The position numbers and the translations under genes were made by a program. Of a DNA stretch of 32,000 bases, positions 1-13,344 are shown in pieces. Origin of the DNA: Candidatus Baldrarchaeota archaeon (GTDB taxonomy: Archaea; Asgardarchaeota; Baldrarchaeia; Baldrarchaeales; DXJG01); NCBI GenBank assembly GCA_019056805.1, contig DXJG01000005.1, forward strand, positions 1 through 32,000, in the 5' to 3' direction. Under the pieces are notes generated by a model. It made no database searches and was not told where the DNA came from. It worked only from the letters and a program-made list of their open reading frames with translations. The number at the start of each line of letters is the position of its first letter. The first letter of the stretch is position 1.

Positions 1-63
1 AATTCCTGGGCCGTCATGAATTGAGTATCTTTGTATGTTAAATATCAATCCTTTTATCGACAT
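1..63 (-). CDS. Glycyl-radical enzyme activating protein (radical SAM, PflA family), N-terminal 21 codons only; runs off the window
   Basis: Not in the ORF track. The reverse complement from ATG at 63 reads MSIKGLIFNIQRYSIHDGPGI, the typical start of GRE activases (GxIFxIQRxSIHDGPGIRT). It lies 64 nt downstream of the GRE on the same strand. Confidence 0.9.
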   Translation of the reverse strand, partial: MSIKGLIFNIQRYSIHDGPGI

Positions 64-127
64 TGATTTCCCCAACACTTCTATCAAACAAGCAAAAAAT
101 GAAAAGATATGAAGTTAAAGTTTGTTC

Positions 128-2503
128 CTAGTATACTTCTCCATGCGCTGTTCTACCTATGATGTCATCTTGCAAGTCTTTGCTTAGCTCTACAAAATAT
201 GCGCAATAACCTGATACTCTTACCAAAAGCCACCTGTATTTCTCTGGATATTTCTGCGCATCTAATAACATTTCTTTATTTACTACGTTAAACTGTATGT
301 GGGCGCAACCTAATTTAACAAAACTTCTTAGGAAATCTACAAATGCATCTATTTTATCTAAGGCTCCAGGTGTGAACATCATGTTAAGTATTGGAAAACC
401 TATTTTCGCCCAGTCTATTTTTGATAACGATTTTAATACTGCTGTTGGCCCGTTTCTATCTGTTCCGTGAGTAGGGGATATAGCGTCAGACAACGGTTCA
501 CCAGCTTTTCTTCCACTTGGAAGTGCTCCAACCACCTTGCCGAAGGGAACATTGGATCCTAGTGTTAGAAATGTTACATCTCTAGCTCCTCTTCCTCTAT
601 AATTCACTTCTGCAACTTTCTTGTATTCTTCGAAAAGCATTTCTGCAACTCTTTTTGCAACTGAATCCACGTAGTCATCGTCATTTCCCCATTTTGGTGC
701 TCTATTTATTAGCATTTGTCTTAATTCCTCTTTACCTTCAAAGTTCTTATCTAATGCATCAAGTAATTCTTCCATTGTGAGTATTTTTTCGTCATATACA
801 AATTTTTTAATTGTTGCAAGCGAATTTACCACATCTGGAAAACCTGCTATACATGGATGGGCGGAAAAATTGTAGCGTGCACCGCCTATTGTTCGATCTA
901 AGCCCTTTTCTATACAACCATCTATGAGTATGGAAGCAAAAGGTGTTGGAGCTAATTCTGCATGTATTTGTTCAAGTAGTATGAAGGCTATTTGAGCTGC
1001 TTGGAAAAAGTAGGCGCACTGTTTTCTAAATGCTTCAAAAAGCTCATTAAAAGTTCTAAATTTTCTTGGATCGCCGGTCTTGGGACCAAGTTGCTTTTTA
1101 CCATACTTCCAGTATCCATTATTTAATGCAAGTTCTAACATTCCAGCTAAATTATAGAAGCCATAATAGTTGTATGCCGCATCGCCTATCGGATCTGGTG
1201 TATCACAACCGCAAAAACTTGCTGTTCTAGCTTCTTCAAACGGAAGTCCGCGATTAAGGTGATGTTTAACCTCTAGGTCTCCGTTAAAGATCGATGGATG
1301 TCCAAGCCCAGCTCTTACGAGTTCAGCCACCTTATATAGGAAGTCTCTAGGCGTATCTTCGGTTAAATGAACTCTTAGAGAAGGGTTTTGTAGCTTTACT
1401 TCTAACATAGCGTCGATGCAAAGATATGAAAGCTCATTTATAATGTCTTTTCCATTCTTTGAACGGCCTCCAAGTTCGAAGTGGAAAGATCGATATCCAG
1501 TGTGGTATTTTGCTGCGGTGTGAGATTTTAGTGAATAGTTTAGCCATCCAAATTTAATAAATAGACATTCAAGTAGTTCTAGGGCATCTTCTTTTGTTAA
1601 TCTCCCCTCTTCTATATCTTTTTTGTAAAATGGATACATGTATTCGTCGAAGCGCCCTGTTGAATATCCAATTCCACCTTCCTCTATATAACTTGCAACA
1701 AAAACGAACCAAAATGATTGTAATGCTTCATGGAAATTTCTTGCGGGATTTGCTGACACCCAGCTACATATCTCGCTAATTTTTAATAGTTCTTCTTTTC
1801 GTTGAGGATCAGTTTCTTTTTCAGCAAGTTCACGTGCTAGATTTGCATATCTTTTAGCCCAGTTGATTACAGCATCAATACATATCAGTGCTGCCTCATA
1901 GAACTGTTTGACTGCCTCATGTGGAACTTTTGCCAGTTTTTCTTTTATTTCTTCCTTTATTCCATTTAGTCCTTTATGAAGTACTTTTGGGTTAAATATG
2001 ACGTGTCCTGGACCTGAGCTAGCAAATGCACCTAAATTTGCTAGCTCAGTGTCCTTGGGAGGATATTCAAAGGGGTTCATGAAAAATACTTCTCTAATTG
2101 CTGGAGATAATCGATTAAACATAACTTCGTGTAGTGTTTTTCCTCGCCAATAGGGGAAAACCTTTTCTCTTAACACTTTTTTAGTTGTTTCATCTACTTC
2201 GGTTGGCTCATATTTCCTTGTGGGAAGTTCATCTAATACTTTTTCTATCCAATGAGCAACATATTCAGGGTAAAGAGGCGTTCCAAGTGGCTCAGTTGTA
2301 GGGGAACCAACGATCAATTCACCATCATCAATTATGATCGGCATTTCTTCTAACACTTTTTTGAAAGCTTTTGCTCTTCTTATTATTTGGGGTTCCCCTT
2401 CGGTTTCTCTGTAACTTTCTGTCACTAACACAGCTCTTGTAGCATCAAGCTTAGGTTTAGCTGTCCAAACTTTCTCTACTAACTTTCTTACTCTATGTCG
2501 CAT
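128..2503 (-). CDS. Glycyl radical enzyme (PFL2/eliminase-like superfamily), substrate unknown, about 791 aa
   Basis: C-terminal glycyl loop LLVRVSGYCAYF (RVSGY at 206-220), Cys loop FCGCDTP (1199-1213), GRFDEYMYPFY, LPSGRKAGEPLSDAISP. Start moved from 2593 to ATG 2503, which follows a GGTGGTGA SD. Confidence 0.93.
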   Translation of the reverse strand: MRHRVRKLVEKVWTAKPKLDATRAVLVTESYRETEGEPQIIRRAKAFKKVLEEMPIIIDDGELIVGSPTTEPLGTPLYPEYVAHWIEKVLDELPTRKYEPTEVDETTKKVLREKVFPYWRGKTLHEVMFNRLSPAIREVFFMNPFEYPPKDTELANLGAFASSGPGHVIFNPKVLHKGLNGIKEEIKEKLAKVPHEAVKQFYEAALICIDAVINWAKRYANLARELAEKETDPQRKEELLKISEICSWVSANPARNFHEALQSFWFVFVASYIEEGGIGYSTGRFDEYMYPFYKKDIEEGRLTKEDALELLECLFIKFGWLNYSLKSHTAAKYHTGYRSFHFELGGRSKNGKDIINELSYLCIDAMLEVKLQNPSLRVHLTEDTPRDFLYKVAELVRAGLGHPSIFNGDLEVKHHLNRGLPFEEARTASFCGCDTPDPIGDAAYNYYGFYNLAGMLELALNNGYWKYGKKQLGPKTGDPRKFRTFNELFEAFRKQCAYFFQAAQIAFILLEQIHAELAPTPFASILIDGCIEKGLDRTIGGARYNFSAHPCIAGFPDVVNSLATIKKFVYDEKILTMEELLDALDKNFEGKEELRQMLINRAPKWGNDDDYVDSVAKRVAEMLFEEYKKVAEVNYRGRGARDVTFLTLGSNVPFGKVVGALPSGRKAGEPLSDAISPTHGTDRNGPTAVLKSLSKIDWAKIGFPILNMMFTPGALDKIDAFVDFLRSFVKLGCAHIQFNVVNKEMLLDAQKYPEKYRWLLVRVSGYCAYFVELSKDLQDDIIGRTAHGEVY

Positions 2504-2885
2504 AATCACCACCTGGAAGACAACTAAGAAATATAAATTATCGTTGTAAAAGTTAAAATTTTTCGACATGTCTAGATATAAAAAATCCGTCAATAAAGGA
2601 TGACTAAGGACGTATGATCGGGAGATTTTATTTTTAAAGTTAGTTTTTAAATTTGGGCTGTGGGATGATGTGTGATTTGAGGTTTTGTGTTGATTGGGAT
2701 ACGTTTAACCTGAAACATGTTAATTATTGACGTAGACCCTAGGTTCGATGCATACTTTGCTCTAAAAATCCTAACTAGTACAAGTACACCTGACTGTGAT
2801 CGTCAATTAGGAGGATTTTTAAATACAGCTACAAACTATGAGTCTTATAGGATTTTATCATATTGAAAAATGGAAAATAAAACAG

Positions 2886-4181
2886 TCATATGTCTTTTAG
2901 AACTTCTCTATAGCCTTCCATGTCAAAGAACCCGTTTCCCGACACGTTAAAAACTATGACTTTTTCTTTGTTTTCTCTTTTCGCTTTAAGTGCTTCGTCG
3001 ATTGCTGCTTTTACTGCATATGCTGATTCTAAAGCTACTAGGACTCCTTCTGTTTGCAAAAATATTTTTGCAGCTTCGAGTGCTTCTTTTTCATCCAAGG
3101 CTATAGCATCAATTATTCCTTCATGTCTTAACAGACTTAATGTTGGTGATGAACTACTGCTTCTAAGTCCTTCTGCCCTGATTAGTGGAAGTTTAGTTTC
3201 AACACCTAGCGTGTACATTTTCATTAGGGGTAATGTTCTTGAGGGCTCTACGAAATCATAGCGATATTCTCCCTTAATTAGTGTAGGAGCTGCAGATGTT
3301 TGAACAACTAGAAACTTGATATTTCCCAGTTTTCCATCTAAATAATCTTTTATGAACGGATACGCCAATCCAGGGAAATTGCTTCCAGTTCCGCCACATG
3401 AGAGAACAACATCTGGACTTTTGTCAATAATTTCAAGTTGTTTCTTCGTTTCTAAACCAATAATGGTATGATGCATTATTACATGATTCATTCTACTACC
3501 CCAAATAGCAACAGTGTCATCATTATTTAATGCAACCTCAAAAGTTTCAGCATATGCAGTGCCTAAACTTCCTGGATGCTCCGGGTTTTCTTCCAAATAT
3601 TTCTTCCCTATTTTAGTTGTTTCACTTGGTGATTCAATTACCTTGGCATTAAGCATCCGAGTGTATGAAGCTCTCTCGCGCTTCATGCGACAAGCATGTC
3701 TAACCCAAAAAATGGTACAATCGAGGCTAAACATTGCTGCAGCAAAAGCAACTGCACTTCCAACCTGACCCGCGCCGGTAGGTGCTACTACTCTTTTAAA
3801 CCCCTCTTTATACGCGTAATAAACCTGTGGAATCATCGAATTCATTTTAAAACTGCCAGTAGGTGCTAAATCTTCACGCTTATAATATATACGGGCAGGG
3901 GTATTTAGAAACTCTTCAAGTCTCTTAGCTCTGTATAAAGGCCTTGGCCTTCCTATATGAATGTATAATTCTCTAACCTTATCTGGTATCGATATCCATC
4001 TTTCCTTCGAAAATTCTAGTTCAAGTGATGTTTTTGTGAAAAGTTTTTTCATTAGTTCAACCCTTGACACTCCTTTTTCAGGTTCTTTGTAGGGTGGTAG
4101 AGGTTTTGGCAAATCTGGTAGAATATTATACCAGTGTTTTGGTAGCTCATCAACCGGAAGGAAAATATGATTGTTTTTCAA
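2886..4181 (-). CDS. TrpB2-like PLP-dependent enzyme (fold type II), divergent active site
   Basis: Colinear with TrpB2: LPKHWYNILPDLPKPLPP, PARIYYKREDLAPTGSFK (PLP Lys kept), TGAGQ, GSNF, HPGSLG, VIVFNVSGNG. Probable TTG start at 4181 after a GGAGGG SD. Confidence 0.88.
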   Translation of the reverse strand: MKNNHIFLPVDELPKHWYNILPDLPKPLPPYKEPEKGVSRVELMKKLFTKTSLELEFSKERWISIPDKVRELYIHIGRPRPLYRAKRLEEFLNTPARIYYKREDLAPTGSFKMNSMIPQVYYAYKEGFKRVVAPTGAGQVGSAVAFAAAMFSLDCTIFWVRHACRMKRERASYTRMLNAKVIESPSETTKIGKKYLEENPEHPGSLGTAYAETFEVALNNDDTVAIWGSRMNHVIMHHTIIGLETKKQLEIIDKSPDVVLSCGGTGSNFPGLAYPFIKDYLDGKLGNIKFLVVQTSAAPTLIKGEYRYDFVEPSRTLPLMKMYTLGVETKLPLIRAEGLRSSSSSPTLSLLRHEGIIDAIALDEKEALEAAKIFLQTEGVLVALESAYAVKAAIDEALKAKRENKEKVIVFNVSGNGFFDMEGYREVLKDI

Positions 4182-4206
4182 CGTTACAGCCCTCCTATAA
4201 ATTAGT

Positions 4207-4641
4207 TTAGGACATGAGTATTTTAACGCTATTGCCAATTTTTAAATTTAATTTACCTCCGGTACTCACTTCATCCGCCTTTAGAAGTAGAGTAATATGA
4301 TTTGGGGCATGTGTTGTATCGAAACCAGCAATTACACCGATAAGTCTATCACTAATGTATACTTCATCCCCAACAACAGCAACTCCCCCGTTTTTCACTT
4401 CCATGAAACCTATATAGCCAACATGATTCACAACTTTTCCGGGTGAAGCATCTTCTTCGTCGGTTATAGCAATTTCGCAAATAGAGTTCTTTGCAAGAGC
4501 CCTTGACATCGGGTCAATCAGTTTCATACCTCTTTCATCTATTATAATGTCAAGAATTGCAACTATTTCCCCTAAAATTTCTCTTTTCGCTATATATGGA
4601 CTCTTTTTAATTAATCCGGATTTGTATGGTTCTTTGCTCAT
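4207..4641 (-). CDS. Small beta-rich hypothetical protein, DUF6917-like
   Basis: Motifs GYIGFMEVKNGGVAVVGDEV and IAGFDTTHAPNH resemble DUF6917 as I recall the family. It ends 25 nt before the TrpB2-like start, which suggests an operon. Confidence 0.6.
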   Translation of the reverse strand: MSKEPYKSGLIKKSPYIAKREILGEIVAILDIIIDERGMKLIDPMSRALAKNSICEIAITDEEDASPGKVVNHVGYIGFMEVKNGGVAVVGDEVYISDRLIGVIAGFDTTHAPNHITLLLKADEVSTGGKLNLKIGNSVKILMS

Positions 4642-4782
4642 TTCTCATCACATCCTGAGGTTAACTCGTCAAACCAAATAATTGAAATTTTATATATTAT
4701 TAGATTTCATATTAACAATTATAACACTTTTATTTCTGGTGAAACAATAATATTGTAATACATAAATATCAAGGTGAGAAGA

Positions 4783-5253
4783 ATGGCTGGTCAAGAGAGA
4801 AGGATATGTGTAGACCCAGATTTTTTCGACCTAGAAATATATGCAATATATTATGCGATTTACGACCTTGTTGGAGAAGATACATGGAAGGTTGTATGGA
4901 AAGCTGGTGAAATAGTATATAATGAGATAAAAGATAAGATTGGAGCTGCAGACGCAAAGGACCCCTTTGAATCGCTTAAAAAATTGGCAGAATGGTTGAA
5001 AAAGGTGGGCTATATAGAAGATATCGAGGTACGTAAAGTGGCAGAGGACGAAATAGAGTACGTTATGCTCAATCCTATAATTACTTCAGGAGCAAAGAGA
5101 TTAATTCAAGAAGGCCGCGTTCCGGCGCATATTTCAACAGCTTTAATGTTTGCTGCGCTTAAACAATTTAATATGAAAGCAGAAATGGTAGGTGAACCTA
5201 AGTTTCTACCCGACGGCCGTGCTGTAGAGAGGTGGAAGTTGATCAAAATTTAA
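4783..5253 (+). CDS. V4R/HNOX-like small ligand-binding protein (no Cys motif, no HTH)
   Basis: Pattern WKAGEIVYNEI...LAEWLKKVGYIEDIEV...EIEYVM fits the V4R/TRAPP-like fold. ATG 4783 follows an AGGTGA SD. Confidence 0.5.
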   Translation: MAGQERRICVDPDFFDLEIYAIYYAIYDLVGEDTWKVVWKAGEIVYNEIKDKIGAADAKDPFESLKKLAEWLKKVGYIEDIEVRKVAEDEIEYVMLNPIITSGAKRLIQEGRVPAHISTALMFAALKQFNMKAEMVGEPKFLPDGRAVERWKLIKI

Positions 5254-5285
5254 GTAAAAAATAACTAATTGGGGAGGTGGATTCC

Positions 5286-6566
5286 TTGGTGGAAGTTGTA
5301 GTTGTTGGTGGAGGTTTTGGTGGTATTGGAGCAACTCTTGGCGCAATCAAAGCTGGCGCTAACGTAACTCTAATAGAGAGAACTGATATGTTGCTTGGAA
5401 CAGGATTAGTTGGTGGGATATTTCGGAACAATGGAAGATTTGTAGCCGCTGAAGAAGCTATCGCTATGGGAGCTGGCGAAATATTTGGGATAATGGATAG
5501 AATTGCTCGACATAAAAACATCGAATTTCCGAGGCATAAACATGCAAGTTTATATGATGTGTACAAAATCGAGCCAGAAGTTAGGAAATTTTTGGAAAAA
5601 ATCGGAGTAGAATTAAAGTTAGCAGCTAGAGTTAAGGATGTTGAAAAGGTCAATAACAGGATAGTTTCATTAAAATTAGATAATGGAGAAGAAATTAAGG
5701 GGAATGTTTTTGTAGATGCTACAGGAACTTCGGCTTTCCCTGGAAACTGTACAAGGTATGGTAATGGTTGTGCTATGTGTATTTTACGCTGCCATACATT
5801 TAAACCAAGGGTAAGTATTACGGAGAAAGCTGGGGTTAAGGAATATTATAGGGTAAGGGCAGATGGAACCCCGGGATCTATGAGTGGATCTTGTAAGATT
5901 TTTAAGGAAACGCTATCAAAGGAAATAAGGCACGAACTAGATAAAAGAGGGGTAGCAATAATTCCATTACCTAAGGAAATGGTTGATGAACATAAGTTAA
6001 AAATTAAGGCTTGTGTACAATATGCATATCCAGAATATATCGAAAACATTATATTACTGGATACAGGACCCGCTAAGCTTATGAGTTCTTACTTTCCACT
6101 GCATCTTCTCAGGAAAATACCTGGTTTTGAAGACGCTAGATACGAAGATCCTTTGGCTGGAGGAATGGGTAATTCAATAAGATTTATGGCAATGGCTCCT
6201 AGAGAAAACACGATGCAAGTTAAAGGCATTGGGAACCTCTTTGTGGCTGGAGAAAAGTCAGGTCCTCAGGTAGGGCACACGGAAGCTTTAACAACTGGTG
6301 TTTTGGCAGGTTATAATGCTGCATTAAAAGGAGCAGGAAAGGAATGTATAGAATTGCCTAGAAGCATAACAATAGGGGACTTTATAGCTTTTATAAATGA
6401 GGAGGTGCAGCGGGAAACTCCTATACCAAGAGGTTATACTTATTCTGGTGGGGTATACTTTGAAAGAATGAAAAAATTAGACTTATACACTATCGATGTA
6501 AAAGAGATCCAGAAGAGAGTAGAAGAAGCTGGAGTTAGTGGTATATTTGAAAAACGAGTTATATAA
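5286..6566 (+). CDS. GidA/TrmFO-like FAD-dependent oxidoreductase with Cx6Cx2Cx3C motif
   Basis: N-terminal Rossmann VVVVGGGFGG, FVDATG, and C-terminal NLFVAGEKSG...GVLAGYNAA as in GidA/TrmFO. Cys motif CTRYGNGCAMCILRC. TTG 5286 follows GGAGGTG (ORF track start 5277). Confidence 0.75.
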   Translation: MVEVVVVGGGFGGIGATLGAIKAGANVTLIERTDMLLGTGLVGGIFRNNGRFVAAEEAIAMGAGEIFGIMDRIARHKNIEFPRHKHASLYDVYKIEPEVRKFLEKIGVELKLAARVKDVEKVNNRIVSLKLDNGEEIKGNVFVDATGTSAFPGNCTRYGNGCAMCILRCHTFKPRVSITEKAGVKEYYRVRADGTPGSMSGSCKIFKETLSKEIRHELDKRGVAIIPLPKEMVDEHKLKIKACVQYAYPEYIENIILLDTGPAKLMSSYFPLHLLRKIPGFEDARYEDPLAGGMGNSIRFMAMAPRENTMQVKGIGNLFVAGEKSGPQVGHTEALTTGVLAGYNAALKGAGKECIELPRSITIGDFIAFINEEVQRETPIPRGYTYSGGVYFERMKKLDLYTIDVKEIQKRVEEAGVSGIFEKRVI

Positions 6567-6728
6567 TTCTTTTTTTATTACTACTTTTTAATGTCTACAA
6601 GGTTTTAGACAGAGTTAAATGAAAAATGTTTACAATTCCATCTTTATAATGTAAATAAAGACAATAACATTTATTAGTAAGAAGAAAAAAAGTAAAAAAA
6701 ATACTACTAAAAGCTTGGGGTATGTAAA

Positions 6729-8045
6729 ATGTCTGGGGAAAGGGAGGAAAAAATACCTCAGACATTTTGGGAATACCTTAAAGCTTGGGGACCCGGTATT
6801 GCAGCGGTATTAACTTGGGCTGGAGCTGGAGATCTCGTTGATTGCGCCGCAGCTGGTGCTAGCTATGGTTATGCCCTCATGTGGGCTCTAACAATTGCTC
6901 TACTTCTAAGAGGAGTTATAGTCTCTATAATGGCTAAATACGAACTTTGTAATCCCCACCGAGAAACCTTAATAGCAGCATACAAACGACTTGGAACCTG
7001 GGTTGCATGGATACTTATTGTTGCTTTCTTCTTCTATGCCCACATATACGGTGCATTTCTTCTAAAAGGTTCAGGAGTTGGACTATGGTTACTAAGCGGA
7101 AAAGCTGGAGGAGAATGGGGACTATTTGCCTGGTGTGTAGTACTAATGATAGTTGCAGTCCTCATATGGGGACAATGGGGACAAGGCAAATACAAGTACA
7201 TTGAATATCTGTTTAAAGTAACATTGGCCCTCATGACTATAACTTTCTTGGGAACAGCTGCAATTGCAATAGCAAGAAACCCCGCAGCCCTTGGAAAAAT
7301 GATTCTTGGAGCAATAGCCGTCGGCTGGATTCCACCAGGAGTTGGACCTTGGGAAGCAAGTTTCATGGCAGTTGCAACTATTGGAGCAATTGGAGGTTCA
7401 ATAGCGAACTTTCTCTATCCATATTTCATAAAAGGTAAAGGATGGACCGATGAAAGATACATAAAGGTACAAAGATTTGATCTGTGGCTTGCTATAATTG
7501 TTGTTATAATTTTGGATGCAGCAATTTGGACCGTAGGAGCAGAAATACTACATCCACAAGGTATTCATGTTACCTCGGTAGAAGACATAGCCTATGCATT
7601 GGTTCATATCGTCGGAACTGCCGGAGCAGTACTCGTATATGCAGGGTTATTCGTAACAGCTTATGATACATATATCGGTCTTGCTTGTGGTCTCTGTATG
7701 GGAGGTATCGACTCCATTCATCAAGTTATGCCAGAAAGAAAAGAGAAATACAAGAGTTACGAAAATGATCCATGGTACAGATATGCTATATACTATGCTT
7801 TGATAACGCCCATTATCTGGGCTTTACCAGGAATGCCAGGATTTATCTTCATGGTACTCTTCATGAATGCCCTCTCCGTCGTAATAATTCCAATAATTGC
7901 CATAGGACTTCTAATCATAGCCAACAAAGCAGAGTTCATAGGCGAGAAATATAAGAACAAGTGGTGGGAAAACCTATTATTGATTGTTATAGTGGCAATC
8001 GCGCTCTGGAGTACCTACCATTTAATAATGTCCTTCATTAAGTAG
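6729..8045 (+). CDS. Nramp-family (APC fold) transporter lacking the metal-binding DPGN motif
   Basis: About 11 hydrophobic segments. N-terminal WGPGIAAVLTWAGAGDLV...GASYGYALMW is the Nramp-like signature region, with GAGD in place of DPGN. Confidence 0.75.
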   Translation: MSGEREEKIPQTFWEYLKAWGPGIAAVLTWAGAGDLVDCAAAGASYGYALMWALTIALLLRGVIVSIMAKYELCNPHRETLIAAYKRLGTWVAWILIVAFFFYAHIYGAFLLKGSGVGLWLLSGKAGGEWGLFAWCVVLMIVAVLIWGQWGQGKYKYIEYLFKVTLALMTITFLGTAAIAIARNPAALGKMILGAIAVGWIPPGVGPWEASFMAVATIGAIGGSIANFLYPYFIKGKGWTDERYIKVQRFDLWLAIIVVIILDAAIWTVGAEILHPQGIHVTSVEDIAYALVHIVGTAGAVLVYAGLFVTAYDTYIGLACGLCMGGIDSIHQVMPERKEKYKSYENDPWYRYAIYYALITPIIWALPGMPGFIFMVLFMNALSVVIIPIIAIGLLIIANKAEFIGEKYKNKWWENLLLIVIVAIALWSTYHLIMSFIK

Positions 8046-8208
8046 CCACAGAGACGTAGAAGTCTGAAATCCTAAAACCTATTTTTTACTTTAAGTTTGA
8101 TATGACTCAGTTGATTAAACGTTTATCTGCCACGTTTTTATTTTGTAATTATTATTTAGCAAAAACTCTTTTGTATAATTAATTATGAATAGCAAATAAC
8201 ATAAAAAG

Positions 8209-9141
8209 GTGAGTAAGAAAATGTATAAAGTATTTGAAAGACATGATGTGAACCTTTTAGAGGGAGCTATTGACCTTCATGTACATTCTGCTCCGGACTT
8301 ATTTGCTAGATCACTGGATGCAATTGAATTAGCTAAACAAGCTACAACTGTAGGTATGCGTGCCATTGTCCTAAAATGTCACTTCTTTCCTACAGTATTT
8401 ACGGCTTATTTTGTTAGAAAGGCCGTAGAAAATAGTATAGATGTTTTTGGAGGAATCGTGCTTAATCATTATGTTGGAGGATTTAATCCTCATGCAGTTG
8501 AAGCATCAATAAAAGCTGGTGGGAAAATAGTTTGGATGCCAACTATCTCCGCCACAAATCACATTCACCATTATAAAAGTTTGAATAGGGAAGAATGGGG
8601 ACTAAAAAGTTTAAAGCTAAAAAGTAGAGGAATAGGATTATCGCCCATAAATAAAAAGGATGAAATTGCCCCGCAAGTGGAGGAAATTCTTAGCATAATA
8701 GCTGATACAAATACGATTCTCGCTACTGGTCATCTTTCTGTTCATGAAATTGAAATACTTGTAGAGGAAGCTAGAAATTTGGGAGTTAGAAAAATTCTTG
8801 TAAATCATCCAGCATTTAGAGTTGTAAATATGCCCGTTGAAAAACAAAAGGAACTGGCGAAGAGGGGAGCTTATATGGAACATGTTTTCTTACTTTTGAC
8901 TCCGATGTGGTATACCATGAATCCAAAGAACATGGTAAAAATGATAAAAGAAGTAGGAATTGACCATTCAATAATAGCCACCGATTTGGGACAAATACAT
9001 AATCCTTCACCAATTGAAGGTTTAAGAACCTTTATACAAATACTTTTAGAAAACGGCTTAAAACCACACGAGGTAAGAACTTTAGTGGCTGAAAACCCAG
9101 CCAACCTACTTGATATTGAAATAAAGAAGAATGAAAATTAA
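8209..9141 (+). CDS. Amidohydrolase-superfamily metallo-hydrolase, DUF6282-like
   Basis: Metal ligands in TIM-barrel order: IDLHVHS (HxH), LKCH, ATGH, VNHP, ATDLGQ. Confidence 0.75.
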   Translation: MSKKMYKVFERHDVNLLEGAIDLHVHSAPDLFARSLDAIELAKQATTVGMRAIVLKCHFFPTVFTAYFVRKAVENSIDVFGGIVLNHYVGGFNPHAVEASIKAGGKIVWMPTISATNHIHHYKSLNREEWGLKSLKLKSRGIGLSPINKKDEIAPQVEEILSIIADTNTILATGHLSVHEIEILVEEARNLGVRKILVNHPAFRVVNMPVEKQKELAKRGAYMEHVFLLLTPMWYTMNPKNMVKMIKEVGIDHSIIATDLGQIHNPSPIEGLRTFIQILLENGLKPHEVRTLVAENPANLLDIEIKKNEN

Positions 9142-9402
9142 CATTTTATGTATATCACTCTGTTCATTATGCAATAAAATATGCATGGTTATCATGATGT
9201 ATGTTAGTTAATGAATAAAAACTGTTACAAAATCCATATTGTTTAATGATGAAGCTTTGGTTTACTCTGATAAATTACTGATTTGTCATAGTAAAAAACA
9301 TTGCAAAACAGTTAATTTTTTATAAAATGTCGCTTGATATATTTTCGCCCAATAAAGAGTAGCTAGGTGTTGAAGTGTAAAAGTAAAGTGTGGTGAGGAT
9401 TC

Positions 9403-10197
9403 TTGCCTACAATTATAGTGCCATTTAAGCAGATAGTTGATATTAAAGAGATTAAGGTGGATCCCAGTACCCAAACACCAATAACGGTTGGAATTCCAAG
9501 AAAGATAAGTGATGTAGATAAAAATGCGTTAGAAGAAGCTATAAAAATAAAGGAAAAACATGGCGGGAAAATAATAGCTATCACTGTCGGTCCACCTGAA
9601 GCGAAAACAGCTCTTAGAGAAACATTAGCTATGGGTGTGGATGAAGCATATCTTCTAAGCGACCCTATATTTGAGGGCTCTGACACCCTGGCTACAGCAC
9701 GTATATTAGCAAAGACTATCGAGAAGCTAGGAGAATTTGACTTAATAATTTGTGGGGAAATGTCTCTTGACGGACTTGCGGCTCAAGTTGGTCCGAGGCT
9801 TGCAGAGCTTCTAGACGTACCTCAGATAACTTATGTCAGAAAGGTTACCGTAGAGGGGGATAAGGTAATTGCTGAGAAGGATTTAGAAGAGGAGTATGAA
9901 ATAGTGGAAGCTAAGATGCCGGTCCTTTTAACAGTGACACGAGAGATAAACGAACCCAGGATACCCTCGCTAAGAGATATTATGAAAGCATCAAGAAAAG
10001 AGATCAAAACATGGACAGCAAACGATATCGGAATATCAAAGGAAGACGTTGGATCTGAAGGATCAGCTGTACAGATACTTAAAGTTACAGTTCCAAAAGT
10101 GGAGAGAAAAGGCATTCTTGTAGAGGCTGAAACAGTTGAAGAAGCTGCAGAAGAAGTTGTAAAGATGATACTTAAGGAAGGAGTGTTAAGGAGGTAG
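9403..10197 (+). CDS. etfB: Electron transfer flavoprotein beta subunit (EtfB/FixA)
   Basis: KQIVD, DKNALEEAIKIKE, GSDTLATA, DGLAAQVGPRLAE, INEPRIPS. TTG start after a GGTGAGG SD. Confidence 0.93.
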   Translation: MPTIIVPFKQIVDIKEIKVDPSTQTPITVGIPRKISDVDKNALEEAIKIKEKHGGKIIAITVGPPEAKTALRETLAMGVDEAYLLSDPIFEGSDTLATARILAKTIEKLGEFDLIICGEMSLDGLAAQVGPRLAELLDVPQITYVRKVTVEGDKVIAEKDLEEEYEIVEAKMPVLLTVTREINEPRIPSLRDIMKASRKEIKTWTANDIGISKEDVGSEGSAVQILKVTVPKVERKGILVEAETVEEAAEEVVKMILKEGVLRR

Positions 10198-10201
10198 TGT
10201 C

Positions 10202-11176
10202 ATGAGTTCCAACGAATTTAAAGGAGTTATGGTCTTTTCTGAAAATTTTGAAATTCTCCTAGAATTGCTAGGAAAGGGAAGGGAACTTGCTGACAAACTT
10301 CAAGTAGAACTATCAGCAGTTCTTATGGGACATAACATTGATGAAGAGCGTGGAAAAGACCTTATAAAACATGGAGCTGACAAAGTATACATAGTTGACA
10401 ATCCTATTCTAGAACAATTTAATGCAGAACCTTACGCAGACGTTCTTTCAAAAATAGCTAGTGAATATAAGCCGGAAATAATTTTAATCGGTGCTACAAA
10501 AAGAGGTAAAGAACTTGCGCCAAGAGTTGCCACAAAGTTGAATACAGGATGCATGACTGAATGTACAAAACTAGACATTGATGAGGAACGCCGATTAGTG
10601 GTAACTCGATTAGTATATGGTGGTTCTTCTATAGCAACCGAATATTCTCGTGTAAAACCTCAGATAGCAACAGTTTCTCCACATACATTTGAAAAACTTG
10701 CACCTGAGGAGAGAAAGGGAGAAATAGTCAAATTTGAAGTCGAAGTAAAGGAGCCTAGAACTAAAGTCGTGGAAAGGAAAAAGAAGGAAATTGTCGGAGA
10801 AAGACTTGAAGAAGCTTCAGTGATTGTTGCAGGTGGAAGAGGAATAAGGAGTAAAGAAGATTTCAAGCTACTGGAAGAATTAGCAAAGGTTTTAAATGGA
10901 CAAGTCGGATGTACAAGGCCTATTGCGGCAGACTATGGCTGGTTTACAAATTGGATTGGTATTTCTGGTGTTAAAATAAAACCAAAACTCTACATAGCGG
11001 TAGGTATTTCAGGAGCTATCCAGCATACAGCAGGCATAATGGATTCAAAAATAATTGTAGCAATAAATAAGGATGAAGAGGCTCCAATATTCAAGGCAGC
11101 CGACTACGGAATAGTTGGAGATCTATACAAGATTGTACCTGCCCTTACAGAAGCTTTCAAAAAACTACTAAAATAA
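10202..11176 (+). CDS. etfA: Electron transfer flavoprotein alpha subunit (EtfA/FixB)
   Basis: [50 protein letters not shown]. Begins 4 nt after etfB. Confidence 0.95.
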
Positions 11177-11243
11177 CGTCACAATATATTTTCTTTTTGT
11201 TTTTGCTGTTTTTAAAAGAATAGATAAAAATAGAAAAAGGGAT

Positions 11244-12449
11244 TTACTTGTAGGGCACGTAGTCTCTCCCGAGCAGTTCTCTTGCTATGATTATTCTTTG
11301 AATGTTTAATCCTCCTTCGGCCCCAACGCAGTATGACATTATTCCTCTGAGTCCCATTTCAAGTGGGCATTCTTTTGTATATCCATAGGCGCCAAGCCAT
11401 ATCATTGCTTTCTCGAATGCTTCGAATGCGAGAGAAGGCCCTAGTAATTTAACTGCTGATATGAATTTTGAAACTTCAAGGGGACCAAAACGTCCAGTAG
11501 CATATTTTTCATTGACCATCCAAGCTGCCCTGTATACGAGTGATTTAAGTGCCTCGTTTAAGGCCCATATATCTGCCATTTCAAATTGTATTCCTTCGAA
11601 TTTCGCAAGAGGCCTTCCGAATAATATGCGTTGCTTTGTGTATTCCATTCCAATTTCAAGAGCACGTCGAGTTGCTCCTACAGCAGTTGCACCGATGAGG
11701 AGCCTAGCTAGGTCAAATCCTTCCATTGTATAGTAAAATCCTTTGTTTACTTCTCCGAGCACATATTCATCTGGTAATCTTACATCATTCATTACAAAAC
11801 CGCCGGTAGATATAGCCATTCTGCCCATATCTTCAAATCGTTTTGTAACTTCAACTCCTGGAGCGTCAATAGGTAAGAAGAATGCTGTCATACCTCTGTG
11901 ACCAAGTTTAGGATCTGTTCTTGCAATAATAAAGTATCCTCCTCCTAGTTTCTTTGCTTCCTCGGTACCACTTATGTATATTTTTTCACCATTGATTACC
12001 CATTCGTCGCCTTCTTTCTTGGCGGTTGTTTTAACTGATGCTATGTCGGAGCCTCCTCCGGGTTCTGTGGTTGCTATTCCAACAAATGCCTCTCCTCTTA
12101 CTGCTTTTTTGATATATTTTTCTCTAACTTCCTCGGAACAATATCTGTCAACGACATATCCCCATGAAGCTTCAACTAGGAAGAATACTGGAACTGCTAT
12201 ACTAATATCTGCATATCCTAATTCCTCTGCAGCTATGCATGCGGTTACCCAGTCAGCTCCAGTTCCACCATGTTCTTCGGGAATTGTCAATAAAAGTAAT
12301 CCTAGGTCTGCTAGACCCTTGATAACGTCCATGGGCATTTCTTCTTTTGTGTCCATTTCTCTAACTTTTTCTAAACTTAAATTTTTTTCACACCATTCCT
12401 TAACGGCTTGTCTAAATAATTCTTGCTCCTCTGTGAAAGAGAAATCCAT
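11244..12449 (-). CDS. Acyl-CoA dehydrogenase
   Basis: MDFSFTEEQ start (ATG 12449 after GGGGAGG), TEPGGGSD, WVINGEKIYIS, GAYGYTKE, catalytic region GAEG..IQRIIIARELL. Confidence 0.93.
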   Translation of the reverse strand: MDFSFTEEQELFRQAVKEWCEKNLSLEKVREMDTKEEMPMDVIKGLADLGLLLLTIPEEHGGTGADWVTACIAAEELGYADISIAVPVFFLVEASWGYVVDRYCSEEVREKYIKKAVRGEAFVGIATTEPGGGSDIASVKTTAKKEGDEWVINGEKIYISGTEEAKKLGGGYFIIARTDPKLGHRGMTAFFLPIDAPGVEVTKRFEDMGRMAISTGGFVMNDVRLPDEYVLGEVNKGFYYTMEGFDLARLLIGATAVGATRRALEIGMEYTKQRILFGRPLAKFEGIQFEMADIWALNEALKSLVYRAAWMVNEKYATGRFGPLEVSKFISAVKLLGPSLAFEAFEKAMIWLGAYGYTKECPLEMGLRGIMSYCVGAEGGLNIQRIIIARELLGRDYVPYK

Positions 12450-12850
12450 AATAAAACCTCCCCAAATTTTAATACTAATTGCTATAGCTAACTTACTCAT
12501 CTGGTCATAAAAAATTTACTAATTTCCCTTTTCCAATGAAACCTATACATAAATCAATGCCAACACGGTTAAGAAAATGTATCGAAATACCTTGCGTAAA
12601 TTATTTCAATGCCGCTATATTAACATTTGATTTGAAAGTAGAACCTAAATAGCGACAAAATATAGATTTATAATAACGAAATTAACAATACTGTCGGGAA
12701 AACGTCAGTAAAATTATTAAAAACATCTTAACTAGTAATTTATATGAAGTTTTACAACAGAAGTTTAAAGTCAAGTTTTACATACATAATTCAATCTGAA
12801 AAGTTTAAGTATGATAAATAATTTATTGAAATCGAATTCTCCGATGCTCT

Positions 12851-12979
12851 GCGGGGGTGGCCGAGCCAGGTCAAAGGTTGCTAAAGGCCGATTAAAGGCG
12901 CAGGACTGAGGCACCCTCTTTTAGGGCTCGAATCCTGTGGCGCAGGCCTGCGTGGGTTCAAATCCCACCCCCCGCACCA
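12851..12979 (+). tRNA. trnL: tRNA-Leu(GAG) with two introns: D-loop 21/22 (12875-12895, 21 nt) and anticodon loop, best fit 38/39 (12913-12932, 20 nt; a 37/38 reading would be 12912-12931)
   Basis: Acceptor GCGGGGG/CCCCCGC, discriminator A, encoded CCA, anticodon stem CAGGA/TCCTG, long variable arm, T-arm GTGGG-TTCAAAT-CCCAC. Both inserts fold into bulge-helix-loop-type splice motifs. Confidence 0.92.
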
Positions 12980-13344
12980 ACAATATAATTATTAGTATAT
13001 GTCCTAGGATTTTATATAAGATTTTAATCTATGAATTCGACTTTTGATCTTAACTTTCCATTTTTTAACATATTATTGCTGGTGCTTTTATATGCGAGTG
13101 AAATGAGGAATGTTTTATAATTTTGCAATGAATGTTTCGACAAAGTTATAAAATAATGTTGACATTGTTTTAGTAATCAGGGGTGTGAAATTGTACTTTA
13201 AAGCATTACTTGAAATCTGTATATGCCTAATAACTTCGGAGACACCGTATGATAGTAGTACTTAACACACATTCCAGGTTGAAAAGTACATAGAAGGGAA
13301 GTTCTTTAGCCCGTTTAGGTGTAAAAGGATGTCAGAGAATTTTT

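Follow-up and report, generated by a model that had tools for sequence, protein, structure and literature searches.

According to a recent review of glycyl radical enzymes (GREs), all functionally characterised members of the pyruvate formate-lyase (PFL)-like type are bacterial, and the archaeal ones are without a known function (Imrich et al. 2026, PMC13450708). In that account, two Cys residues on the Cys loop are known only in PFL and TdcE, and the CXE motif, whose Glu binds or deprotonates the substrate hydroxyl, is kept by all eliminases and isomerases; that Glu is likewise retained in every known GRE that cleaves a C-S bond. The review also gives the GRE fingerprint RVxG[FWY]x6-8[FL]x4Qx2[IV]x2R. 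Here we describe an archaeal GRE that departs from both rules, together with the genes around it, in the first 32 kb of contig C13 (GenBank DXJG01000005.1) of a Candidatus Baldrarchaeota assembly of 1.92 Mb in 18 contigs; this whole stretch of 32,000 nucleotides is referred to as the window. The GRE belongs to a clade that breaks the rule that two Cys occur only in PFL and TdcE as well as the CXE rule and that includes an archaeal member, which makes it a defined target for new radical chemistry, and this clade is the new part of the results. The GRE is the centre of an accessory island of eight genes, which is real and deviant, is not a conserved eleven-gene pathway and is not linked to the adjoining genes for the electron transfer flavoprotein (ETF).

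A GRE clade with an altered Cys loop

The window GRE has the features that define the superfamily, with both domains, the catalytic Cys, a gene for an activating enzyme (activase) next to its own, and a C-terminus (RVSGY-CAYFVE-L-SKDL-Q-DD-I-IG-R) that fits the fingerprint. It scores 692 bits against the PFL2 subfamily model TIGR01774, just above the cut-off of 678, and falls far below the cut-offs of all equivalog models. The PDB entries that it resembles most in sequence (E 1e-188 to 1e-137) are those of the PFL2-type eliminases and isomerases (CutC, glycerol and propanediol dehydratases, HypD, IslA/IseG, HpsG, HplG, PflD/YbiW), on whose equivalog hidden Markov models it reaches 44-66% of the cut-off. 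With these enzymes it has in common the fold, the subfamily, the Gly-loop fingerprint, the position of the catalytic Cys, the equivalent of His164 of glycerol dehydratase and a ferredoxin-domain activase. Unlike them, it has Thr in place of the CXE Glu (Glu435 in glycerol dehydratase), an extra Cys at position -2, a clade-specific insert of 10 residues ahead of the His loop, and replacements of the glycerol dehydratase residues His281 and Ser282 (by Ile and Gly) and Asp447 (by Tyr).

To place these changes, we compared the loops and the phylogeny of the window GRE and its 120 best matches (121 sequences; FastTree). The window GRE and six others form a monophyletic clade with a support of 1.0, and in all seven members the Cys loop reads C-[GA]-C-[VD]-T-P (F-C-G-C-D-T-P in the window). 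The catalytic Cys, which aligns to Cys433 of glycerol dehydratase, is invariant in all 121 sequences, and the canonical C-x-E is present in 109 of them; within the clade, Thr occupies the Glu position in 7/7 members and the second Cys lies two residues upstream of the catalytic one. Having no CXE, and a second Cys at C-x-C spacing, the clade therefore lies outside every described GRE class.

The enzyme does not fit the formate lyases either, since its loop is C-G-C and not C-C and its scores are low against both TIGR01255 (147 bits, cut-off 994) and PRK09983 (541, cut-off 1109); the similarity to PFL and TdcE is remote, with 133 bits to 1H16. The V-[ST]-P that follows the Cys loop here resembles what we take to be the C-C-V-S-P of PflB. 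Archaeoglobus fulgidus PFL2 (PDB 2F3O), also an archaeal PFL-like GRE and one whose function is debated, is not the closest relative (E 4e-143, rank 21), and the clade of the window GRE is separate from it.

An island within a conserved redox module

Open reading frame (ORF) calling and Pfam and NCBIfam scans of the window reproduced the gene calls and coordinates of an earlier note on this DNA, and gave the following features from the start of the contig to the acyl-CoA dehydrogenase (ACAD) gene.

1..87, minus strand: GRE-activating radical S-adenosylmethionine (SAM) enzyme, N-terminal 29 codons (open-ended ORF with the N-terminal motif of GRE-activating enzymes, GRE-AE; TIGR02494 positions 1-15)
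128..2503, minus strand: GRE of the PFL2 subfamily (PF02901 PFL-like, 678 bits; PF01228 Gly_radical, 94 bits)
2504..2885: spacer of 382 bp, AT-rich, that separates the TrpB2-like and GRE genes (ORF coordinates)
2886..4181, minus strand: TrpB2-derived pyridoxal phosphate (PLP) enzyme of the 'TGSFK' sub-clade (NF009057, 520 bits)
4207..4641, minus strand: DUF6917 protein (PF21891, 142 bits)
4642..4782: divergent intergenic region, 141 bp, AT-rich, with TATA-like runs (sequence reading)
4783 (alternative start 4774)..5253, plus strand: V4R/Bet3/H-NOX-fold protein of 156-159 amino acids (aa) (no Pfam match; AlphaFold2 model)
5277..6566, plus strand: GidA-like FAD flavoprotein with a Cys-rich motif (PF01134, 98 bits)
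6729..8045, plus strand: Nramp-superfamily transporter without the metal-binding residues (PF01566, 94.5 bits)
8209..9141, plus strand: DUF6282 protein, presumed to be of the amidohydrolase type, the final island gene (PF19799, 246 bits)
9142..9304: island-specific spacer (blastn against G006, G007 and G008; homology restarts at ~9305)
9403..10197, plus strand: EtfB, outside the island (Pfam/NCBIfam)
10202..11176, plus strand: EtfA, outside the island (Pfam/NCBIfam)
11244..12449, minus strand: ACAD, convergent with etfA, outside the island (three ACAD domains)

The earlier note had described these genes as one block of two diverging arms, closed by the ACAD gene and passing its electrons to ETF. 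Comparison with three genomes of the same genus (G006, G007 and G008; 82-91% complete) separates the block into two parts. When the DNA was searched against the three congeners, matches (80-82% identical nucleotides) were confined to etfB-etfA-acd and began at ~9305. In all three, the hdrA-like, etfB, etfA and acd genes are contiguous (75-92% amino-acid identity): the gene immediately upstream of etfB encodes a 455-aa HdrA-like FAD/Fe-S protein and has divergent HdrC/B-like genes and one for a MiaB-like protein ahead of it, the EtfB and EtfA orthologues directly downstream of it are 86-91% identical to those of the window, and ACAD orthologues with 92% identity occupy the same position in G006 and G007. 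Protein searches of the three congeners did not find the GRE, the GidA-like protein, the Nramp-like protein or DUF6917, and G008 has homologues of the V4R-like (86%) and DUF6282 (72%) proteins, which lie on different contigs and beside different genes. What stands of the single block is that its first eight genes are present or absent together at this site, as a single indel relative to the sister species. The congeners have the synteny without the island; hence ETF and ACAD, which adjoin its landing site, are older than the island and do not belong to it. The ACAD gene does not close the block but is part of the neighbouring ETF module, and the proposed flow of electrons to ETF is not supported. 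Contiguity with the ETF and ACAD genes should hence be taken to reflect where the island landed and not a common pathway. The module that is conserved in the genus consists of the HdrA-like flavoprotein, EtfB, EtfA, the convergent acyl-CoA dehydrogenase and the divergent HdrC/B-like genes.

The left border of the island lies on another contig. The activase that the earlier note had placed in the left arm is indeed there, as a 29-codon N-terminal fragment only, with the contig starting at base 1; its C-terminal 104 aa are found at C17:3-317, adjoining the hdrA-like gene of this genome (C17:732-2099), and the start of C17 also carries the orthologues of the HdrC/B-like and MiaB-like genes (75-89% identical, the hdrA-like gene included). 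An independent metagenome contig (L122), whose GRE is 96% identical, has in order the Nramp-like, GidA-like, V4R-like, DUF6917, PLP enzyme and GRE genes, the full-length activase (303 aa) and a convergent hdrA-like gene. Because the activase halves and the hdrA-like neighbours match the order in L122 and in the congeners, C13 by all appearances joins C17. The break of the assembly inside the activase gene stems from a second activase paralogue, located at the end of C14 and the start of C18, with which the gene was collapsed. Assembled from the two contigs, about 10.5 kb from the activase through DUF6282 appears as an insertion between hdrA-like and etfB that is specific to this species. The activase, GRE, TrpB2-variant and DUF6917 genes share one strand, and the V4R/Bet3-fold, GidA-like, Nramp-like and DUF6282 genes follow on the other.

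The second activase paralogue is itself split over contig ends (C14:31931-32050 and C18:1-317), and its nucleotide identity to the first is 82% at the N-terminus and ~87% at the C-terminus. It has no partner, the assembly holding one GRE only, and a thioredoxin-reductase-like flavoprotein gene and a radical-SAM/SPASM gene lie downstream of it.

The 141-bp AT-rich gap from which the arms diverge was confirmed by reading the sequence. The right-arm genes had been said to be separated by gaps of 160-260 bp; three of the gaps, at 162, 163 and 261 bp, agree with this and one is of 23 bp (between the V4R-like and GidA-like genes), while the left arm, besides a gap of 25 bp between DUF6917 and the TrpB2 variant, has the 382-bp spacer upstream of the GRE, which had gone unmentioned. 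This spacer has a similar length (375 bp) in L122 and probably holds the GRE-AE promoter. An Rfam scan of positions 1-13000, the spacer included, gave no family at threshold.

Partners of the GRE and their contexts

The GRE-seeded comparison comprised 79 loci from GTDB species genomes (at most 43% identity) and 80 metagenome loci, as far as the matches were listed, and we also examined the contexts of 12 DUF6917 loci and those of the GidA-like, TrpB2-variant and DUF6282 genes. Near-identical copies aside, the partner genes of the window GRE were in none of the 79 and 80 listed GRE loci. The whole gene set, whose recurrence in unrelated genomes the earlier note had named as support, does not recur among the 159 GRE loci listed or in the partner-gene contexts, where only sub-pairs were seen; the statement that no characterised pathway has this set of genes is upheld. 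A metagenome scan with an alignment of the clade gave, among the matches listed, one further near-identical contig (L156) and unrelated GREs. The closest homologues of the island genes come from differing lineages and contexts (GRE 60%, TrpB2 variant 69%, GidA-like 81%, DUF6917 63%), the best named ones being from Bathyarchaeia. A look for stretches similar to the window in the other genomes scanned gave none.

A search of 5.8 billion proteins yielded discrete closer relatives of the GRE at 54-60% identity, plus one at 96%. In three lineages of the clade the genes are arranged TctC-TctB-TctA-GRE-activase; one of these lineages has DUF6917, RidA, MR_MLE (enolase-superfamily), PrpD, Aminotran_5 and Asp/Glu racemase genes upstream, and another has ack, pta, ferredoxin and 2-oxoacid:ferredoxin oxidoreductase genes. 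A further locus of the clade reads GntR/FCD-GRE-activase. In the sister clade (48-49% identity), one locus (L124) consists of GntR/FCD, GRE, activase, an Nramp-like gene and TauE, and its Nramp-like protein is 38% identical over the full length to that of the window, with the GAGD motif in common. The divergent V4R-like/DUF6917 pair is also found in genome G397 (75% and 63% identity), beside a PLP enzyme of the Thr/Ser-dehydratase type. The unit that recurs, as read from these gene orders, appears to be GRE-activase plus an anion transporter, sometimes with DUF6917 or the Nramp-like gene. The soluble TctC binding protein and the FCD-type regulator at orthologous loci offer easy handles on the substrate.

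A contig of G397 (L107, G397:C69) carries a type VI secretion Hcp-like gene at 3076-3723. G397 is assigned to the same archaeal phylum, and its estimated contamination is 9%. This contig could be bacterial, which would bear on the origin of the V4R-like/DUF6917 pair of G397.

The earlier note had claimed changes at specificity-setting residues of the GRE, of the PLP enzyme and of the transporter, and alignments confirmed for all three that specificity or catalytic residues are altered. The PLP enzyme belongs to the TrpB2 family (NF009057, 520 bits against a cut-off of 366), aligns over its full length (E 6e-125) with the solved Sulfolobus paralogues TrpB2a (6HUL) and TrpB2i (4QYS), and has the overall motifs and the PLP lysine in common with them, the latter in TGSFK. 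Against these structures, T-E-T-G-A-G-Q-W-G becomes A-P-T-G-A-G-Q-V-G, such that the catalytic Glu that activates indole (the E104/E109 equivalent) is a Pro in the window protein and GAGQWG is GAGQVG; in addition, the His before the PLP Lys is a Phe, RYHG is RSSS and SGHG is SGNG. The window protein is the third TrpB2 paralogue of its genome. The motif table covers 120 homologues and the paralogue on C6, that on C9 having failed to align; the C6 paralogue, canonical in its residues, and 116 of the 120 homologues listed have the catalytic Glu. The 'TGSFK' sequences form a separate sub-clade (56-94% identity), most members of which retain the Glu, with Cys or Tyr in two others. This sub-clade may represent a TrpB2 that was recruited to non-tryptophan chemistry.

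On metagenome and NCBI Bathyarchaeota contigs (L239/L240, 7980-12354), a Glu-retaining TGSFK relative lies between a divergent EamA transporter gene and genes for a YeiH-like (PF03601) membrane protein and ComB. The neighbourhood of ComB, a 2-phosphosulfolactate phosphatase, hints at a place for the sub-clade in sulfonate or coenzyme-M-like chemistry.

The transporter of the island matches the Pfam Nramp domain over its full length, which implies the LeuT fold in common with Nramp/MntH and NRMT transporters, with weak similarity to PDB entries (E 5e-6). Unlike these transporters, it is changed at all metal-coordinating positions: in comparison with 8E6I (DraNramp) and 7QIA (EleNRMT), DPGN of transmembrane helix 1 is GAGD, and MPH in the A-x-x-M-P-H of transmembrane helix 6 is GGS. 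A further difference is the linkage of its gene to that of a GRE, seen at two loci. Such Nramp-like proteins, encoded next to GREs and devoid of metal ligands, suggest a branch of the Nramp fold that carries non-metals.

DUF6917 is present in 12 of 400 genomes of the phylum and is predicted to be a small all-beta barrel (AlphaFold2 model with a predicted local distance difference test, pLDDT, of 90), with a conserved H-x-P-N-H motif and invariant Glu, His and Asn. Searches with the model (Foldseek against PDB and Swiss-Prot; VIA-align wide) returned weak beta-barrel matches alone (Z of at most 4.4), among them EF-Tu domain 2 and PTS IIA-gutA (Z 3.6), and with no informative structural neighbour the function of DUF6917 cannot be deduced from its fold. 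We considered DUF6917 as a small subunit of the GRE and rejected this, most DUF6917 genes being in GRE-free peptide-catabolism clusters. In eight genomes (L108-L117; G386, G383, G316, G362, G069, G384, G070 and G389), distant DUF6917 genes lie within a cluster of ~15 kb that is strongly conserved. Besides DUF6917, it encodes an Opp-type ABC transporter, one or two acyltransferase-like proteins of the C45 (AAT) type, an M19 dipeptidase, PrpD, a class-III aminotransferase and an AstE/AspA-like protein; it looks like an undescribed catabolic unit for peptides or acyl-amino acids.

The V4R-like call of the earlier note holds at the level of the fold, which is that of V4R, Bet3 (TRAPP) and H-NOX proteins: the AlphaFold2 model has a pLDDT of 96, Foldseek matches it to Bet3, YslB and H-NOX (probability 1.0, TM-scores 0.55-0.67, E 2.5e-5), and its Atlas neighbours include TRAPP and ATC_hydrolase clusters. 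No Pfam family matches the sequence, the V4R model included, even at E <= 1, and Pfam scans of its homologues gave no matches either. The family is an uncommon one (74 representatives in a set of 1.84 billion proteins), and the stand-alone protein is presumed to bind a small ligand. One homologue (P0362) is a fusion of 386 aa in which the V4R-like domain, at 230-379, stands behind an N-terminal part of 230 residues without a Pfam match, a possible Rosetta-stone clue to the partner of the family.

Relatives of the GidA-like protein are widespread; those in Bathyarchaeia and Firmicutes are 55-65% identical to it and lie in contexts unrelated to GREs. In Thermosediminibacter oceani (L127, CP002131, 8001-11753), two GidA-like paralogues that are 59% and 55% identical to that of the window flank a gene for a 321-aa protein of no known family, amid housekeeping genes (ScpAB, PBP5, RluB), a context that suggests a general cellular and not a catabolic role for the family.

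For DUF6282, no solved homologue was found by sequence. In G008, its orthologue (72%; L151, G008:C109, 1896-5525) is the first gene of an operon that also encodes a D-glutamate-cyclase-like protein and both subunits, alpha and beta, of an Fe-S hydro-lyase of the class-I fumarase/tartrate-dehydratase type. This setting hints at what DUF6282 might act on, perhaps a lactam or an acidic amino acid.

Proposed role, rival explanations and the rest of the window

We propose that the block is a composite of the genus-conserved redox module and a GRE-centred accessory island that serves an organic-acid route, and we put the probability of this reading at roughly one half. The GRE and its activase would be the functional core of the island. 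To judge by its residues, this pair has an intact radical relay, in which the activase would form a glycyl radical on the RVSGY loop, the radical would pass to the conserved Cys of F-C-G-C-D-T-P as a thiyl radical, and the thiyl would attack the substrate. The Nramp-like protein may replace TctABC as the importer here, and the TrpB2 variant, presumably unable to activate indole, may act with DUF6917 before or after the GRE step, for example in a beta-elimination or beta-replacement yielding a 2-oxoacid. The V4R-like protein could be a ligand sensor or carrier, and the GidA-like and DUF6282 genes have more probably come along as passengers. The substrate would be an organic acid anion that is taken up by the cell and probably stems from an amino acid, because TctABC, FCD-GntR and neighbours that lead from amino acids to 2-oxoacids (racemase, PLP enzymes, RidA, enolase-superfamily) recur at the loci of the clade.

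The likeliest single chemistry, still a doubtful one, would be PFL-like: the thiyl radical would add to the carbonyl of a 2-oxoacid, the second Cys would serve as relay or acyl carrier, and the products would be acyl-CoA and formate. An eliminase with a relocated base, a redox mechanism of the Cys pair and a sulfonate lyase stand open beside it as alternatives. It is possible, by our estimate, and rather less than probable that the C-x-C-[V/D]-T-P clade constitutes a new GRE reaction class, either a PFL-like acyl-transfer lyase whose 2-oxoacid is neither pyruvate nor 2-oxobutyrate or a GRE with a Cys pair as its internal redox or relay couple, and that its archaeal member works with a repurposed Nramp-fold transporter of organic anions. 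If so, a role could for the first time be assigned to an archaeal PFL-like GRE.

Several findings weigh against the composite organic-acid reading and its chemistry. Full copies of the island are known only from near-identical relatives (94-96%; L122 and L156), and its unity thus has no independent replicate; the gaps of 160-380 bp point to five transcription units or more. DUF6917 genes are mostly GRE-free and lie in Opp-ABC/M19 dipeptidase/PrpD clusters, and the nearest relatives of the TrpB2 variant sit beside ComB/YeiH-like or DUF917 genes, not GREs. The contexts of the GRE clade are heterogeneous, and the neighbours of one member, a transaldolase/FSA aldolase and a PfkB kinase, speak for a sugar phosphate and not for an acid derived from an amino acid. 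As for the PFL-like chemistry, the Cys spacing is C-x-C and not C-C, the PFL model is matched with 147 bits where 994 are needed, and no CoA site is apparent. The pyruvate-binding Arg of PFL is apparently not conserved either, in an alignment with what is presumably the PflB sequence.

Among the alternatives, the one that survives best holds that GRE and activase are the sole functional unit and that the other six island genes are unrelated and accumulated in a variable region. The large intergenic gaps, the different lineages and contexts of the nearest homologues of each gene, and the dispersal of the V4R-like and DUF6282 genes over other G008 contigs with other neighbours all fit this view, which we nevertheless find tentative, with the odds clearly against it. 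GRE with DUF6917 recurs in an independent lineage, the sister clade again has a GRE together with an Nramp-like gene of that non-metal motif, and the V4R-like gene, DUF6917 and a PLP beta-eliminase recur together in G397; moreover, just 25 bp separate DUF6917 from the TrpB2 variant and 23 bp the V4R-like from the GidA-like gene.

An organosulfonate system, in which the Nramp-like protein would import a sulfonate and the GRE, the TrpB2-derived enzyme or both would cleave a C-S bond (cysteate-like or sulfolactate-like), is unlikely. A TauE sulfite exporter does adjoin the homologous Nramp-like gene at the sister-clade GRE locus, TGSFK members of TrpB2 lie beside ComB and a YeiH-like exporter, and, as far as the titles of papers go, TTT transporters accompany known sulfonate GRE pathways. 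However, the CXE glutamate that all known C-S-cleaving GREs keep (PMC13450708) is absent from the clade, the island has no TauE, sulfite reductase or sulfonate-specific gene, and the TctABC-linked members of the clade are found in carboxylate or amino-acid and not sulfur contexts. Least of all do we expect all eleven genes to form a single catabolic pathway that imports and degrades one amino-acid-like or heterocyclic compound with electrons passing to ETF, for although the genes are physically contiguous and ACAD/ETF genes lie within 10 kb of some other GRE loci (L051, L053, L056), the island interrupts an hdrA-like/etfBA/acd unit that is intact in three island-free congeners, the set is together in no other genome examined, and the GidA-like, DUF6282 and TrpB2-variant families occur elsewhere in unrelated contexts.

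Beyond the island and the redox module, ARAGORN found no tRNA in the window, and a weak Rfam match to the tmRNA clan (18 bits, below threshold) lies at 12851-12979. In a search of sequencing runs, DNA of the window was matched in subsurface and marine metagenomes, with no RNA run listed as carrying it. Elsewhere, the window encodes aIF6, the ribosomal proteins P0 and L1, FtsZ and FtsY.

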